Of a stretch of DNA of 64,000 bases, positions 49,980 through 55,310 are shown one piece after another (the first letter of the stretch is position 1; each line of letters starts with the position of its first letter). This DNA is from Massalongia carnosa (taxonomy: Eukaryota). Made by a program: the position numbers and the translations under genes. The notes beneath the pieces were generated by a model that was not told the origin of the DNA, did not search any database, and saw nothing but the letters and a program-made list of their open reading frames with translations. Location: assembly GCA_965645245.1 (NCBI GenBank), contig OZ287070.1, positions 930,001 through 994,000 on the forward strand, read 5' to 3'.

Positions 49980-52900
49980 TGTCAGCATTGTCCGAGGCTA
50001 GTCCCTCAGCACGTGGGAAATCTACTTTATTTTAAAAACTTTCATGGCATCATTTGTTGGCAACAGCGTCGACTCAGGGATTTCTTGGGGGGAAAGGTTT
50101 CTTTTTGTAGGACAGGCCGGTGTTGGTAGATACCTCTTGCTCTTGAATTTTGAAGCCACCGGGGATGGATATTCCTATGCGGTTATTACGAGATAATGTT
50201 TATATAGATACAGTAGTCCAGCAGTTTACCCACCTAGCAGGGAACCGACTGCCTTGCGTAAAAGGAGAGAAAGGGTGGCTATGTATCATCTTTGCGCGGT
50301 TCAAAGCTGTGAGCATTGAATGTGATGTCAAAGGACCCATGGGAGTTCCTCCGGATGATTTTGCTGGTCATCCCATGACCACTTCCTGCTGCATGACATT
50401 TCGCTTCTTCATCATTCATCCTCCGGGTAACGCCGGAAGCCGAGAGAGTTTAAGCGATTGCAAAGAACGGGCATGGCGCTCAAGCTAACGATGCAGTACA
50501 TATGCGGCATTTGACACATGTCATCGAAAAGTTCTTGTGTCTTCCAGTCCAAAGCCAAACCGAGGAGTTTCCAAGCAAAAACCTGGCACGATGACTACAA
50601 GGAAAGCCACCGAGGTTGGGTTGTCATGGATCCGGTTTACGCGTAGCTAATTCAAAGTACATTACGCATTAAATCGTGGACTTTTCATCACCTTGGTCCA
50701 TGGGTATGGGTTCGAGCTAGGGTACTCTCCAGAGTACAGGGGACAAATATTGTCAGCATTTGCCAGCATGGCATGGATAGCGGCAGATAACGCAACCAGA
50801 GACAAACATCATCTCTCTGAGACCCCTAGGCCGGCGAAGAGGCCACCCTCTTCCACTCGGCCGCCGCAGGGCAAACTTTGGGCTAGGATGCTAACGTTGT
50901 GCGACAGCGGCTTTTTTTTGGCGACTCCTCTCCCATCCCCATACGCCAATGATAAACCCATGTCTCTCGGCCCTTTTGCTCGTGACTGGAGGATCTACAC
51001 GATAAGGCCAGGAGGTCGTGTGGCTGAACGAGCGGCCAGAGCTTCAATGCGAGTAATCCGGACCATCGAGTTTAGCAGACGCCTTGAGCGGAGCCCATGT
51101 CTTCATGGCTTTTGATACAGTGATGAAGGCTCTTCCTCCCGGATCGCCTTTGTCGTCACACTGGTAGATTCTATCCAAGGACACTCACAAATAGATGTCA
51201 TCTGCCACATTTGTTGATAATGGGTTCTCTAGCCAAGGGGAGCTGCGGGCATGATCATTTTATAATTGTGCGTATCCCTAGCATGATAAATAAATAAAAA
51301 AACAAAATGGGTGAAACGGTAATTGGTTCTGTCTATGCCCTGAACTACACGGATCAGTATTGCGGGTCTAACGCTCATGGCCTTGCGACAGAGCCCATGC
51401 TACGATGGAATCCATTATTACTTTTCGAGAAAAGTATGAGCGGCGTCCAGGGAAAGGCGAGAGAAATAAGAGATGAGAGATGAGAGATTTTAAACTTCTG
51501 ATACCCCGCGAAAGTGCTGTGGCTGCTTAACTCGAGCTGGCTACTAGCGAACGTAGCTGCACCTATGAGACCATAAGCGCGGATGGGGAAGAGCGGGCGA
51601 AATGGCATTGGGGCGTTGATTCGATATATTCGATCATGGAGGAGTGCAAACCGCAAATCGCAAAAATCGCAAAAATCGGAAACAAACGATACACCAATCG
51701 AGTCGCACTAGCCCTCCTTGAGCTTCCCGTCTTTCACTCGATGGACTGCCCACTCGTGTGTCATATTGCCGGCCACTGGGCTAGAATTTATCGTTCACGT
51801 TAGTCCAGAAGTATGGGAGGAAAAACTTAGTCCACTAATACCCTGTACAGAGTACTCGGTACCTAATACTCTGTACATAATAATCATGTCCCAAAACCCT
51901 AAATCATTTCTCTCCGTCGCAAAATAATTATTTCTCGCAGATCAAGAAAAAAGTCTTTCATCCGTCCGACACACCTCTCCTCTCGGAAGTCATCCTCCTT
52001 CCCTACTCATCCCACCTCTTACTTCCTCGCGTTCTTTCCTGTGTTGCGGGTGTTTTGATTTACTCGTATCGACTTGTAGCATCCGCTTTGTCTCTCTACA
52101 TTGCACGTCAGCAGCTTGATTCGGTAAGTCATTGGATCTCGTCCAATTTCATATCCTCCCACCCCCCCGCACTTTTCACCGACGTTAATCGTAAGTTCGT
52201 GCATCTTGGGCAATTTAATGCGTATGCGTTGTCACATAATCGCGTGGCCTAAAACCGAATGAGCCTTCAAAAGTCCTCATGCTTTCAAGGGTTGATCGTC
52301 GCAAACATGACAGTGTCAACCTAATGGAGCTTGCCGTTGGATGATCGATCGTGTGGAAATGATCATTGCGATTCAACCTTACACACATTTGGGGTGTTGC
52401 ATGCACAATGAATACTGACAATGCGCCTTCACTACAGTCGATGTTGCTTCATCTAGAGTGAAGAACCGAACTGACGAGGAAAATCCAGGTCCATCGGTGT
52501 GAATCGTTTCGCCGTCAACATCAATCACTTGATCGAAAGACGGCCATAAAAGTTTTAACATTCTTTACCTCATCTACAATCCGCAGGCGAGTCGTTTATT
52601 CCAAGCAGCGTCCATCGAAAATTCTCTGTCCAACTCCACTTGTCCCTTGCCTCCTGAAGTACGTCTACGCGCCAGAGTTAGCACAACGATCTTGGAGATT
52701 GGACGACTTGAGCCATATCCGCAATCGACTGTGTTTAGCTACTGAACATTTCCTTCGGCGTTGACTACATTTGTAGGGACTTAGAGTTCCGGTTACGTCA
52801 GATCAGGGAGATTTGGTATCAGGTAAGACCATACCACCTGCAAGTTCCGCGCAATGTCTCCTTCTGTGAATCTTCAAAATTTGAAATCTAGAAGCAAGGC

Positions 52901-53024: not shown

Positions 53025-55310
53025 ATGAGTTTCCAGTACGATGCGTTTCCAAATCAGCAGGGCCAGCAGGATGCTAGCGGTGCTCGTCCTGGGGCATCCC
53101 AGGAACAACAGGATGCTATGGGCGGTCCAATGCCTGATAATTCTGTAGCACAGTTCCAAGGTGCTAACAATGGTGACCCTGGCTCCGCAGGCGGTCAGCA
53201 ACAAGTAGGTGATGCGAAAACAACTCTCTGGTAGGTCATACTTTCAAACTTTGTTCTAGTTCATATATGCTTTATTACGTGATGGGTGGATGTCAACATA
53301 ACCTCCTTCAATGGCTATCTCAATCTCAAAGGTTTGTGTCAAGCATGAGGCTTACACGTTCTCTAGGATGGGTGAGCTTGAGCCTTGGATTGATGAGAAT
53401 TTCGTTCGCAGCGTATGGTACAACTTGGGTGAGTCAGTCAATGTGAAAATGATCCGTGACAAATTCTCGGGGTAGGTCGACATCTCTTTATGTTCACTGG
53501 AATTACGCTAGCGAATACTGATTCATCCTAGTAATGCTGGATATTGCTTCATCGATTTCACTACCCCTGCTGCCGCTGCTAAGGCATTGACGCTCAACGG
53601 CACCATCATTCCAAACTCCAACCGGCCTTTTAAGCTCAATTGGGCTTCTGGTGGTGGCCTGGCTGATCGAAGGTATGGCCGTTGACTCTGAACAACATCT
53701 GTTTGTACTAATTGGTTGAAGCCGGGATGATCGTGGCCCGGAACATTCCATTTTCGTTGGGGATCTTGGGCCAGAAGTGAATGAATTTGTTCTGGTAGCC
53801 CTTTTTCAGGGTCGTTTTCCTTCCTGCAAATCTGCCAAGATCATGACAGATCCCATAAGCGGAATGTCTCGCGGCTATGGCTTTGTTCGGTTTTCTGACG
53901 AGAGCGACCAACAGCGTGCGCTGGGTGAAATGCAAGGTGTCTATTGCGGTAATCGTCCCATGCGCATCTCTACGGCGACCCCGAAGAACAAGCCTGGTGC
54001 AGCCGGGCCTGGCGCAATGGGCATGCCCGGTGCACCAGGGCCTGTGAATATGTATCCCATGGGAAATCCTCCTGTTGGCTATTATGGCGCCCCTCAGCCA
54101 ATGAACCAGTTTACGGACCCCAACAATACAACCGTTTTCGTCGGAGGGCTGTCAGGTTACGTGACCGAAGATGAACTTCGTTCCTTCTTCCAGGGTTTTG
54201 GTGAGATTACTTATGTGAAGATCCCGCCCGGGAAAGGATGTGGGTTTGTTCAATTCGTGCAGCGTCACGCAGCAGAAATGGCCATCAACCAGATGCAAGG
54301 CTATCCTATTGGGAACTCGCGCGTTCGTTTGAGTTGGGGCCGAAGTCAAAATAATTCTGGTCCTGCTGGCACTCCTTACCGCCCGGCACCTCCACCACCC
54401 GTGTATCCATCGATGGGAGTTCCACCTTCACACCCATATGGCAACTTTGCTCCCATGAAGGTTAGCAATGCCCTAGCTCTTGAAGATTCGAGCAATGCTA
54501 ATGTCCTTCTAGTAAGAAATCTCCTATTTTTCTCTTTGAACTCCACACCGAGCATTGTTTATCAGCTAGTCATGGCCACCTTTCGATGTGGTCCTTCGCT
54601 TCTGAAACAGTCTTCTGAAGACTTATTCTCCGGTTAGCGTTGTTCATTAGAGAAGACATGGCGGAATTTTGCAAAAGTCAGTTTCGACCAGGTCATTTGC
54701 AAGTACTGGAATGGTTCTTCAGCAACACGTCTTCTTGGACGGCGTCACGAGGCTACGACTTCTCCGACATCCATGCTGTCAATCCGCGCTTTGTTGCACT
54801 GCAAGGTGTTTCGAATGTGGCATCTGCTAAAGCTATTTGGCCTGCAATTAATTCACCCCTTAACGTTCTAGTCTTGGCATTATTACACTGTGAAGTTTTA
54901 GCCTAGAATCTGTCTTGATTCAACACCTCTCTTTTCACGATCTTTTTTGTAATCTCGCAGTTTTGTGAATGTCTTCAAGTCTCTCGCCCAGTATTCGTAC
55001 AAACAGCGCTCTCTATCTTAGCATCTAGCACCCCTTTCTCTTTGCGATGCCTCGACTTGTAAAATGAGCAGAGCCGCTGACCTTGGAATGTGTCTCCGAT
55101 AGTTCACATGCCGCACACATGCATCCACCGCCAATGCCTGGCCAAGGCCCACCTCAAGGTCCACCCGGTGCAATTGCTCCTGGTGCTCCCGGCCCGATTG
55201 ATGCCCTTCCAGTCAACCGCATGAATGAAATGTACATGCAGCAACATCAAAATGTCAGCGATCGCCTTGAAGCCGATGCAAGAGGTTATGACAGCGTCTT
55301 TTCTCAGTAG
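53025..55310 (+). CDS. Triple-RRM RNA-binding protein, Nam8/Ngr1/Csx1 family; short isoform ends at 54515, long isoform at 55310
   Basis: KTTLW|MGELEPWIDENF, NAGYCFIDF, FKLNWASGGG, SIFVGDLGPEV, SRGYGFVRF, NTTVFVGGL and GKGCGFVQF. The distal exon encodes NRMNEMYM...DRLEADARGY. Confidence 0.92.

Follow-up and report, generated by a model that had tools for sequence, protein, structure and literature searches.

Introduction

The founding paper on spliceosomal twin introns (stwintrons) is that of Flipphi et al. 2013. Stwintrons have so far been regarded chiefly as oddities in the history of introns, and their splicing intermediates as transient. In the [D1,2] class, an outer intron has its donor split between nucleotides 1 and 2 by an inner intron (5'-G1/[GU..AG]/U2RWGY, with slashes marking the boundaries; PMC9024468). 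Such introns have been described in filamentous ascomycetes, for example in dhaoS (AN3270), which encodes a DHA1 antiporter in Aspergillus nidulans (PMC5587772), and sister [D1,2] stwintrons occur in Hypoxylaceae and Xylariaceae (PMC9024468, PMC12403724). A [D5,6] stwintron in the reticulon-like gene rtnA of Aspergillus takes part in exon skipping (PMC6616335). In animals, recursive splicing and re-splicing can use 5' splice sites that the joining of two exons has recreated, and they are repressed by the exon junction complex (PMC6224609, PMC8184009). In the stwintron reports consulted (PMC5639578, PMC9024468, PMC12403724, PMC6616335, PMC5587772, and PMC8469720), we came across no RRM, Nam8, or RNA-binding case, no stop-codon case, and no isoform case.

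We analyzed a 64-kb stretch of the Massalongia carnosa contig OZ287070.1 (positions 930,001 to 994,000; hereafter, the window), in which a probable [D1,2] stwintron occurs at the end of a gene for an RNA-binding protein. Positions below are counted from the first letter of the window, and all features are on the forward (+) strand.

A Nam8/RrmA-type three-RRM gene

The coding region of the gene occupies positions 53025 to 55310, from the ATG at 53025 to the TAG at 55308-55310. In our gene model, exon 1 (53025-53230), which ends at a phase 2 donor (TG/GTAGGT), is followed by intron 1 (53231-53366; 136 nt, phase 2), exon 2 (53367-53471), intron 2 (53472-53531; 60 nt, phase 2), exon 3 (53532-53672), intron 3 (53673-53721; 49 nt, phase 2), and exon 4, which in its long-mRNA version spans 53722-54459 and encodes RRM2, a linker, RRM3, and a Pro-rich tail. 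The protein junctions across introns 1 and 2 (..TTLW-MGELEPW and ..KFSG-NAGYCF) match those of relatives, and the junction across intron 3 (..LADR-S-RDDRGPE) matches that of relatives P0003 and P0006. The model gives a long form of 465 aa from a joined coding sequence of 1398 nt and a short form of 397 aa.

Comparisons with solved structures uphold the Nam8-type assignment made in a first-pass annotation of the sequence. Yeast Nam8 was the best PDB match both for exon 4 (E 1.8e-57; the runner-up, TIA-1, had 2.4e-23) and for the family profile (E 1.2e-99, Nam8 residues 28 to 395), and in the exon 4 comparison RRM3 was ~75% identical to yeast Nam8. Pfam identified two RRM_1 domains in exon 4 and three in relative P0006. 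The gene thus encodes three RRMs in the Nam8 order, with Nam8 as the closest solved structure, and belongs to the Nam8/Ngr1/Csx1/RrmA family. The U1 snRNP subunit Nam8 of yeast (PDB 5zwn chain V and 7 further entries) likewise has three RRMs. Nam8 associates with the U1 snRNP, and RrmA and Csx1 bind or control specific mRNAs (PMC5648754, PMC4282371). Relatives of the present protein bear Csx1-type regulator names or, in the case of P0222, a name referring to the regulation of arginine catabolism, the function described for A. nidulans RrmA, which is an mRNA-stability regulator, as is Schizosaccharomyces pombe Csx1 (PMC4282371). Among the literature matches listed for Nam8, Csx1, and Ngr1 in filamentous fungi, none was relevant.

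Anatomy and reading frames of the putative twin intron

Exon 4 ends with ATG AAG at 54460, the Lys codon AAG being 54458-54460. A 52-nt internal intron (54461-54512) follows, with a GTTAGC donor, a GCTAAT branch site (54497-54502), and a TAG acceptor, and directly after it, at 54513, begins TAAGAAAT. Removal of the 52 nt gives ..APMK followed by TAA (54513-54515), the stop codon of the short form, and at the same time creates the donor G/TAAGA, of which the TAA supplies bases 2 to 4. The G at 54460 is shared: in the short mRNA it completes the last Lys codon as its third base, and in the long route it is G1 of the external intron's donor. The remainder of this intron (54513-55102; 591 nt including G54460) has a GCTGAC branch site (55076-55081; A at 55080, 22 nt before the acceptor) and an acceptor, ..GATAG, whose last base is 55102. 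It would be the first part of the 3' untranslated region (UTR) of the short mRNA, which extends through 55103-55310. The distal exon (55103-55310) comprises a T that completes an Asn codon (AA + T), 68 codons (SHAAHMHPPP...DSVFSQ), and the TAG stop. Every coordinate of this nested anatomy in the first-pass annotation proved correct to the base.

The outer donor is split exactly after its nucleotide 1 and before its nucleotide 2 by the inner intron (G54460/54461-54512/TAAGA), which carries a donor, a branch site, and an acceptor of its own and has a length typical of fungal introns. Excision of the inner intron leaves a canonical outer donor, branch site, and acceptor (GTAAGA, GCTGAC, and ..GATAG); position 6 of the regenerated donor is A and departs from the Y of the G1/U2RWGY consensus (PMC9024468).

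The conserved frame of the distal exon is reached only if AA (ending at 54459) is joined to T (55103). A one-step splice from 54461 would remove 642 nt (3 x 214), and one from the GT at 54512 would remove 591 nt (3 x 197). Both lengths are multiples of 3, so that the upstream frame would be kept and the distal exon would be read as FTCRTHAST...PD and a stop, which is not the conserved frame; the donors at 54461 and 54512 were ruled out for this reason. The frame argument of the first-pass annotation thus holds: only two consecutive splices, or an equivalent join of AA to T, fuse exon 4 to the distal frame, and the resulting Asn junction is also found in intron-free orthologues and in mRNA-like open reading frames (ORFs) of relatives.

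We regard as very improbable a long form produced in one step, whether by a GG..AG intron at 54459/54460, from the GTATCC donor at 54403, or from a phase 0 donor at 54461 to the AG at 55240-55241. The product of the GG..AG intron would be identical to the two-step mRNA, so mRNA-like ORFs cannot discriminate between them; locus L016 seems to have had the arrangement replaced by a plain phase 0 intron with a downstream acceptor (K/HPLPPP join), and the NCBI model P0011 (Lecanora helva) likewise assumes a phase 0 intron with a downstream acceptor. On the other hand, we know of no U2-type class with GG donors. The GTATCC donor (near 54402) was rejected because its use would drop 19 codons (YPSMG.PPSHPYGNFAPM) that are present in all long forms, and the 55240-55241 acceptor, which is preceded by purine-rich sequence, because 46 of the 68 conserved codons would be lost. 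Furthermore, peptide conservation begins exactly at the YAG/T acceptor, where it continues the ..MN-P.A.H of intron-free orthologues. Public gene models (P0003, P0008, P0010, P0011, P0012, and P0014) cross the junction in differing and mutually inconsistent ways, as expected if no canonical single intron fits; a nested intron accounts for the conflicting C termini of automated models in lichen fungi and Alternaria. On the sequence, the two-step route is very probably the one by which the long form would arise.

A generic [D1,2] pattern had exactly one match on both strands of the window, namely, the present site, and 200 Markov-1 resamples of the window gave an expectation of 0.32 (maximum, 4), so that the pattern by itself is not improbable. 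What counts for more is that the site stands at the end of the coding exon and is conserved among related loci.

Conservation of the nested form in related loci

The comparison set consisted of 80 related metagenome loci retained from 417 confirmed stretches; it includes near-duplicates, and counts therefore overstate independence. A GT/GC..AG intron of 48 to 80 nt, with an in-frame stop immediately after it, was found in 48 of the 80 loci. It occupies the same place as the internal intron of M. carnosa and is otherwise unconserved in sequence. The preceding exon ends with G in 46 and with AAG in 43 of these 48 loci, and AAG/GT is invariant in a 9-sequence alignment. TAAG stands directly after the internal acceptor in 41/48 loci, and in 23/23 of those that also have the distal exon.

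The distal exon was detected in 33 of the 80 loci (23 nested, 9 contiguous, and 1 variant). Wherever it is complete in a nested locus (22/22 loci, representing ~10 distinct lineages), its acceptor is AG/T in the AA + T = Asn phase, stands 13 to 26 nt after a CTRAY branch site, and is followed by the peptide P[YHN]A[AV]H.H; all 18 distinct sequences listed have CTAAC, CTGAC, CTAAT, or CTGAT 13 to 26 nt before the acceptor. Ten loci without an intron read straight through (..A(A/P)M-AAC/AAT-CCN..), with Asn at the junction. Three of them (L070, L077, and L078) are genomic, because upstream introns are present, and the intron-free form in loci L069-L080 has introns of 32 nt at other places in the gene. 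Some loci read here as copies with the inner intron already removed (L001 and L026) could alternatively be genomic and have a plain AA/GTAAG intron. Given this conservation, the last intervening sequence of the gene is probably a [D1,2] spliceosomal twin intron.

Coding conservation and ancestry of the distal exon

The distal exon matched 11 protein relatives with E values of 2e-27 to 2e-17 and identities of 69 to 81%. In 36 pairs of 9 sequences, changes at codon positions 1, 2, and 3 numbered 505, 438, and 1448, respectively. Because most changes fall at the third position, the distal frame is judged to be under purifying selection, in agreement with the coding status that the first-pass annotation had given it. 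These results bear on the possibility that only the short form is made and that the distal exon is an unused relic of the ancestral C terminus within the 3' UTR. In its favor, many lineages have apparently lost the distal exon. However, the exon is intact here (68 codons without a stop), with the identities and third-position excess given above; its branch site, acceptor, and phase are kept in 22/22 loci; and it is present in the mRNA-like ORFs of the close relatives P0006 and P0007. We therefore give this reading hardly any credence.

The mRNA-like ORFs were called without splicing on ~2-kb contigs and run through every intron position. P0006, whose exon 4 portion is 94% identical to that of M. 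carnosa, reads ..NFAPM-N-PHAVHMH, and P0007 reads ..NFAPL-N-PHAAHMH. The change from K to N is seen in P0068 (..MMN-NFPVQ), compared with the 98.4% identical Alternaria genome model P0067 (..MMK-CLVVFPF-NFPVQ). The contig size and the ORFs across all intron positions lead us to infer that P0006, P0007, and P0068 derive from RNA. We found no same-species pair of short and long mRNA-like ORFs, the best short-ending match to P0006 or P0007 being 85 to 90% identical, and none of 20 mRNA-like or short contigs inspected had a poly(A) end.

The last 38 aa of the distal exon match the C termini of Nam8-type proteins of Lipomyces (E 3e-10) and Trichomonascus ("Nam8p"; E 2e-11). The first-pass annotation had likened the distal peptide to the C-terminal motif of yeast Nam8/Ngr1. 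For Saccharomyces cerevisiae Nam8 we did not find this likeness: the profile alignment stops at Nam8 residue 395 and leaves the conserved C-terminal helix motif of the present family unaligned to the S. cerevisiae tail. It is the extreme C terminus of other ascomycete Nam8-type proteins that the exon matches. A search with the distal exon alone gave no PDB match below E 1 and no Pfam family. In the predicted structure of P0006, the tail is mostly disordered and contains a single helix (P0006 residues 435 to 457; pLDDT about 70). A long tail with the N junction occurs in 31 of 126 proteins of the "longer" set, including those of Tuber, Morchella, Orbilia, Pneumocystis, and Saitoella. Judged by these alignments, the distal exon is the ancestral C terminus of ascomycete Nam8-type proteins.

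The short product and the outer intron

Exact ..AP[MLI]K ends were found in 52 of 120 "near"-length relatives, many of which are full-length ORFs on ~2 kb contigs, and no distal exon was found in 11 nested loci with ~3 kb of downstream sequence. In many lineages, the group named RrmA/Csx1, the short product with the ..APMK end is the only form, which makes a real two-product gene likely. For M. carnosa, we lean toward both products being functional. The first-pass annotation had proposed a stop-codon and isoform switch; the case for a functional short mRNA comes from the other lineages, and the switch itself is treated below as a proposal.

The outer intron has two distinctive regions. Just 3' of the regenerated donor is a pyrimidine-rich tract (54518-54542), with a pyrimidine fraction of 0.76 versus 0.59 in the rest of the intron. 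The same tract is richer in pyrimidine than the rest of the intron in 14/14 loci examined, which are not all independent, and we infer that it is a candidate binding site. The second region is a sequence-conserved block (54593-54679; TTCGCTTC..TTCTCCGNTTAGCGTT..GGAGG.A.TTTGCAAAAG) defined in a 9-locus alignment. The block had no Rfam match at E <= 1, its consensus fold contained 6 pairs with no compensatory change, and the copy in the window folded no better than its shuffles (z = +1.23). By eye, a candidate small hairpin was seen whose stems differ by locus (here AGTCTTC/GAAGACT), in an alignment that is out of register. The outer intron also contains a 95-codon stop-to-stop ORF (54619-54906), which we take as chance.

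It is also conceivable that the twin intron is constitutive, i.e., that both introns are always removed, that only the 465-aa protein is made, and that the RNA ending in ..APMK and a stop is a short-lived intermediate whose in-frame stop arises incidentally from the GTAAG donor. Published [D1,2] intermediates are described as transient RNA species (PMC12403724), and purifying selection on the distal exon indicates that the long form matters. The stop is also automatic: in this phase, any [D1,2] stwintron whose donor is GTAAG or GTGAG brings a stop (TAA or TGA) into frame, and the TAA is thus no evidence of design. Against a constitutive twin intron, an identical ..APMK end is the sole detectable product in many related lineages (the 11 loci and 52/120 relatives mentioned above). 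In addition, the outer intron contains the conserved block, whose core motif, TTAGCG, recurs in the 3' UTR of lineages without the distal exon, and the outer introns of related loci are 449 to 917 nt long, compared with 49 to 136 nt for the other introns of this gene. On balance, we consider constitutive removal unlikely and prefer a gene with two products. Lineages in which no distal exon can be detected retain TAAG as well, so that a stop codon alone could account for its conservation.

Sequences from other lineages suggest how the arrangement may have evolved. An ORF from a genomic contig of 16 kb, P0196, matches the Morchella sextelata model P0021 with 99.2% identity over 241 aa, as far as ..ANFAPL; P0196 then reads K and a stop, whereas P0021 continues with N-PHAAHMH. 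Pezizomycetes thus appear to have a plain phase 2 intron at this place, the unspliced reading of which also gives K and a stop. The outer intron accordingly looks older than the inner one, and the nested form would have arisen by insertion into a donor: the inner intron may have entered between G1 and U2 of the outer donor in an ancestor of the lichen-forming, eurotiomycete, and dothideomycete lines. The arrangement also suggests that what is named RrmA/Csx1 in filamentous fungi is the short product of a Nam8 gene that ancestrally had two outputs.

Proposed mechanism

In the first step, the 52-nt internal intron (54461-54512) would be excised, producing a complete message (..CCC ATG AAG TAA) for the 397-aa protein with the ..APMK end. 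The same join would set G54460 beside TAAGA and thereby generate a GTAAGA donor that was absent before. In the second step, this donor would be used with the branch site at 55076-55081 and the acceptor at 55102, and the G and the stop codon would leave with the intron. AA and T would then form Asn, and 68 codons, for a Pro/Gly-rich linker and the conserved helix, would be added to give the 465-aa product. Both splices (54460^54513 and 54459^55103) presumably occur in M. carnosa, and we suppose that the RNA spliced once leaves the nucleus and is translated and that the proportion of the two forms is regulated. The contigs of four sequencing runs that cover the locus are DNA-like, with introns and exons covered alike and no splice joints, and they say nothing about expression.

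A more far-reaching scheme can be offered only tentatively, as we judge it more doubtful than probable. The gene may encode two RNA-binding proteins, chosen by re-splicing: a tailless RrmA/Csx1-type mRNA-stability regulator from the RNA spliced once and an ancestral Nam8-type protein from the RNA spliced twice, with docking through RRM3 and feedback. In the yeast U1 snRNP, the tail of Nam8 lies over the face of RRM3 that binds RNA; by analogy, the C-terminal helix of the long form would make RRM3 a protein-docking module. Nam8/TIA-1-type proteins aid U1 at weak donors with U-rich sequence downstream, and given the pyrimidine-rich tract after the regenerated donor, feedback on the isoform ratio could exist. 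The long form could promote the second splice, or the short form could block it. S. cerevisiae has two paralogues, NAM8 and NGR1, whereas here one gene may yield two forms; if so, budding yeast would have obtained the same division of labor through gene duplication.

If the proposal is correct, one set of four bases, made only by a prior splice, serves as the stop codon for one isoform and as the 5' splice site for the other, and isoform choice is compactly coupled to splicing order. Moreover, a relative of the host gene is itself a factor in the selection of 5' splice sites, and the arrangement is kept in several fungal classes. The locus also offers a clean case of apparent insertion of an inner intron into the donor of one that was already in place, with lineages available that have the plain intron, the nested form, a lost distal exon, or no intron at the site.

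Comparison with known systems

Like the published [D1,2] stwintrons, the present one consists of an outer U2 intron whose donor is split, between G1 and U2, by an inner U2 intron, and it would need two consecutive splices, one-step removal leaving the G exonic with a +1 frame shift (PMC9024468). It differs from them in several respects. Their intermediate is described as transient, whereas here it is a complete ORF whose stop overlaps the regenerated donor and which corresponds to the only product of many sister lineages. With 591 nt here and up to 917 nt in relatives, the outer intron is long; donor position 6 is A rather than Y, and the arrangement extends across several fungal classes rather than one family. 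[D1,2] stwintrons as such are known; here the intermediate would serve as a finished message.

As far as the rtnA report describes it, the [D5,6] stwintron of that gene resembles the present one in having a part in alternative splicing and in the way intron structure evolves; the alternative in rtnA is the skipping of a downstream exon, and here it would be a halt after the first nested splice, with a changed C terminus. As in the recursive splicing described in animals, the first splice would make a new junctional 5' splice site whose use decides the final mRNA. The animal-type ratchet point (AG/GUAAGU) is absent, since TAAGA rather than GT follows the internal acceptor. At the animal sites described, the GU comes wholly from the downstream piece and no exon base is lost, whereas here the upstream exon supplies G1 as its last base, which would be lost from the coding sequence.

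Nested intron at the end of the large exon of a three-RRM gene

The three-RRM gene starts at ATG 53025 on the forward strand and has three upstream introns (136, 60, and 49 nt in the gene model), all of which are ordinary phase-2 introns. Its large exon (exon 4) ends with ..GCT CCC ATG AAG, the last G being position 54460, and is followed by a 52-nt inner intron (54461-54512) with the donor GTTAGC, a branch site GCTAAT (54497-54502), and a terminal TAG; the bases from 54513 onward are TAAGAAAT. Excision of these 52 nt yields ..AAG TAA and a 397-aa protein in the gene model. The outer intron, which takes its first base from G54460, has a branch site GCTGAC (55076-55081) and ends at the acceptor ..GATAG (55102). 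Its removal would join AA (54459) to T (55103) as Asn and open a distal frame of 68 codons (55103-55310; stop TAG at 55308-55310), resulting in a 465-aa protein. A one-step splice would remove 642 nt from 54461 or 591 nt from the GT at 54512; because both lengths are multiples of three, the upstream frame is kept, and the distal exon then reads FTCRTH...PD* instead of the conserved peptide. The first-pass annotation, which had proposed a [D1,2] stwintron (i.e., an inner intron between nucleotides 1 and 2 of the outer donor) acting as an isoform switch, was exact in its coordinates when these were re-read on the sequence, and its argument that one-step splicing misses the distal frame holds for both routes. 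A generic [D1,2] pattern matched the window once, at the 54460 site, compared with an average of 0.32 matches in resampled sequence; the pattern is weak evidence by itself, and the comparative data carry the argument.

Two side features lie on the same strand. A 95-codon stop-to-stop open frame within the outer intron (54619-54906) is taken as chance, and GGTAAGT-like donor motifs 5' of the start codon (52120-52130 and 52820-52830) may mark 5' UTR introns of the same gene.

Among all solved structures, yeast Nam8 was the best match to exon 4 (E = 1.8e-57), followed by TIA-1 (2.4e-23). RRM3 of the gene is about three quarters identical to and nearly colinear with that of Nam8, and a profile built from 22 full-length relatives matched Nam8 residues 28-395 (E = 1.2e-99). 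Pfam searches identified three RRM_1 domains in the related protein P0006 and no domain in the distal exon. The nearest relatives are from lichen-forming fungi. Named relatives from Eurotiomycetes are labeled "mRNA binding post-transcriptional regulator (Csx1)," and P0222 (87% identity in exon 4) is named [quoted passage not shown] The latter label corresponds to the function described for Aspergillus nidulans RrmA, a Csx1 homologue reported to bind the areA 3' UTR and modulate mRNA stability (PMC4282371), the link to RrmA running through the annotation name alone.

Conservation in related metagenome loci

Metagenome contigs were scanned using the terminal, RRM3-encoding part of exon 4, which matched 587 stretches; of the 417 that passed confirmation, the best 80 were retained. 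Among these best 80 of 417, 48 loci are nested, with a short intron of 48 to 80 nt (GT, or GC in one case, to AG) at exactly the same place and an in-frame stop directly after it. Another 20 have the stop immediately after the last codon, 10 are contiguous and continue with AAC/AAT (Asn) and then CCN.. (P-N/H-A-H-H-M-H..), and the remaining 2 (L016 and L046) are of other forms. At this stop, 41 nested loci read TAAG, and the other 7 read TGACCT (twice), TGAACG, TGAGCT, TAAATC, TAATTT, or TAGTGA. A profile search detected the distal exon in 33 of the 80 loci, comprising 23 nested (one truncated where its contig stops), 9 contiguous (the tenth being too short for detection), and L016. The distal exon is complete in 22 nested loci, which represent about ten distinct lineages and thus a smaller effective count; in every one of them, this exon starts at AG|T in the phase requiring AA+T, and a branch site (CTAAC/CTGAC/CTAAT/CTGAT) lies 13 to 26 nt 5' of its acceptor.

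The outer introns of these 22 loci (449 to 917 nt) otherwise align poorly. In a nine-sequence alignment, AAGGT, AGTAAG, one internal block, the acceptor region, and nothing else were conspicuous; AAGGT, AGTAAG, and the distal exon, the elements that the first-pass annotation had singled out for comparison among orthologues, are all conserved. Distal-exon changes at codon positions 1/2/3 numbered 505/438/1448 (36 pairs of nine sequences), and this concentration on the third position argues that the distal frame is translated, in line with the coding conservation anticipated for it.

In L010 (3346-3400), the inner intron occupies the usual position and begins with GCAAGT, which makes it one of the GC-AG class. 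A separate group of loci (L047, L051, L053, L054, L056-L058, L061, L066, and L074), also found on long genomic contigs, ends with ..FAPRQ-TAA without an intron, as does the Cladosporium model P0025. This stop is preceded by CGCCAG, a sequence similar to the one with which the inner intron finishes in sister groups (..CCGCAG|TAAGCG), and part of the inner intron may have become coding in this group.

Asn junction and ancestral tail

The genomic contiguous loci L070, L077, and L078 retain upstream introns, have none at the junction, and read ..A-A-M-N-P-N-A-H-H-M-H across it. In this lineage (L069-L080), intron positions 1 and 2 of the gene are occupied by introns just 32 nt long, both ending with GCTAATGCYAG, as seen in L077 (2319-2350 and 2459-2490). 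Of the 126 proteins in the longer set, 31 have a long tail with the Asn junction, and they come from taxa including Lipomyces, Geotrichum, Pneumocystis, Saitoella, Tuber, Morchella, and Orbilia, as well as Trichomonascus and Sugiyamaella (both named Nam8p). Over its final 38 residues, the peptide of the distal exon in the window aligns with the extreme C-termini of the Lipomyces (E = 3e-10) and Trichomonascus (E = 2e-11) proteins, which argues that the distal exon is the ancestral end of this Nam8-type family in ascomycetes. A tail likeness to Saccharomyces cerevisiae Nam8 itself, stated in the first-pass annotation, was not found in the structure search or the profile comparison with Nam8.

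Logan and JGI proteins are ORF calls on contigs, and an ORF of 450 to 490 residues on a contig near 2 kb in length, running through all intron positions of the gene, presumably derives from spliced RNA or an intron-free genome. Such mRNA-like ORFs from relatives contain the predicted Asn join, namely, P0006 (466 aa; 94% identical to exon 4), with ..NFAPM-N-PHAVHMH, and P0007, with ..NFAPL-N-PHAAHMH. Genome models of lichen fungi span the junction variously, with K+VCNFDILTPVYMLTGPH.., K+RALLYCDRRDF.., K|GPPQGPP.., or a skip from ..YPSM (P0003, P0010, P0011, and P0008). Public models from lichen fungi and Alternaria have mutually discordant C-termini (P0003, P0008, P0010-P0012, P0014, P0018, P0020, P0022, P0061-P0064, and P0067), in which junk residues are inserted, conserved codons are skipped, or an early stop occurs; this disagreement is consistent with predictors being unable to handle a nested intron. 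The Alternaria-like P0068 has ..MMN-NFPVQ where the genome model P0067, 98.4% identical to it, has ..MMK-CLVVFPF-NFPVQ; the K-to-N change is present in this pair, and the tail is a different sequence. The mRNA-like, Eurotiomycete-like P0186 ends with ..GGFAPM-N-Y-stop, and the mRNA-like L046 (1500-1570) has the same change in ..APM-N-DAQQQQTYEGAQGV-stop. These cases suggest that the second splice persists where the ancestral tail has decayed, gone, or been replaced.

Order of events

P0196, an ORF on a 16-kb genomic contig, is 99.2% identical to the Morchella sextelata model P0021 over 241 residues, up to ..ANFAPL, after which P0196 has K and a stop and P0021 has N-PHAAHMH. The simplest reading of these proteins is that Pezizomycetes carry, at the equivalent place, a plain intron in phase 2 of the form AA|GT(A/G)A... 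The outer intron would therefore be older than the inner one, and the nested form would have arisen from a small intron entering the outer donor between G1 and U2. Later distal-exon loss probably occurred in nested lineages; no distal exon was found within about 3 kb downstream in 11 nested loci (L010, L018, L025, L039, L043, L044, L052, L055, L060, L062, and L067). The contiguous loci would reflect later loss of introns at the junction. In L016 (600-900), an apparent plain 88-nt phase-0 intron (638-725) joins ..APLK to HPLPPP.., dropping the first 11 distal-exon codons; it appears to have replaced the nested form with use of a downstream acceptor, a possible escape from nesting.

One-splice RNA as a possible message

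Several observations favor a productive short mRNA. Among 120 relatives of near length, 52 end exactly with ..AP(M/L/I)K, and many of these are full-length ORFs from contigs near 2 kb in length. The mRNA-like contigs L023 and L034 lack the inner intron and have TAA next, and their close genomic counterparts (L010 and L039) retain it; these lineages have no detectable distal exon. Within the otherwise unalignable outer intron, a block of about 90 nt is conserved (forward strand, 54593-54679; L005:3465-3558, L007:3486-3574, L011:3472-3559, L022:3474-3564, L027:3462-3555, L032:3463-3556, and L040:3477-3570), with the core TTCTCCGNTTAGCGTT followed by GGAGG.A.TTTGCAAAAG. Its TTAGCG motif (e.g., CACTTTAGCGGGAGTTGG) recurs in the 3' UTRs of short-form-only lineages, 40 to 200 nt past the stop. 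An Rfam search with the block gave no match and no convincing structure was found; in the 3' UTR of the short mRNA, the block may act as an element for protein binding. Pezizomycete-like mRNA-like ORFs include both K-ending (P0176, P0182, P0207, P0228, and P0233) and N-junction (P0028, P0029, and P0034) forms, and therefore two products, by retention or removal of the outer intron, may predate the nested form. However, any GTAAG donor in this phase automatically places TAA in frame, no same-species pair of short and long forms was found (best identities, 85 to 93%), and the intermediates of published stwintrons have been characterized as transient (PMC12403724).

The two routes, their products on paper, and their conservation are read directly from the sequences. 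After the first splice, the RNA would either exit as the short message or undergo the second splice. Conceivably, proteins deposited at the new junction hinder the regenerated donor, as described for animals (PMC6224609, PMC8184009), or 3'-end formation within the 591-nt outer intron competes with the second splice. The gene's own protein might also feed back on splicing, an idea based on reports that Nam8 brings U1 to weak sites and that U-rich sequence lying past weak 5' splice sites is bound by TIA-1 (PMC5648754), and on a pyrimidine-rich tract: in 14 of 14 loci (not all independent), the pyrimidine fraction of the 25 bases past the regenerated donor is 0.64 to 0.80, versus 0.54 to 0.60 elsewhere in the intron. 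In the yeast U1 snRNP, the RRM3 beta-sheet face is described as covered by the Nam8 C-terminal tail and a Prp39 helix (PMC5648754); by analogy, RRM3 could have different binding partners in an isoform without the tail. In the predicted model of P0006, the distal part is disordered except for one helix (residues 435-457; pLDDT about 70).

Comparison with known stwintrons

Every sequence-level feature of a [D1,2] stwintron is present at the window site, in agreement with the first-pass assignment. A term search within a set of stwintron papers turned up neither an example in a gene of the RRM or Nam8 type nor an intermediate proposed as a productive mRNA with a stop codon inside the regenerated donor. 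The putative stwintron in the window appears to be of a known type, and its interest lies in the conservation across classes, the host gene, and the apparent two outputs suggested by sequence.
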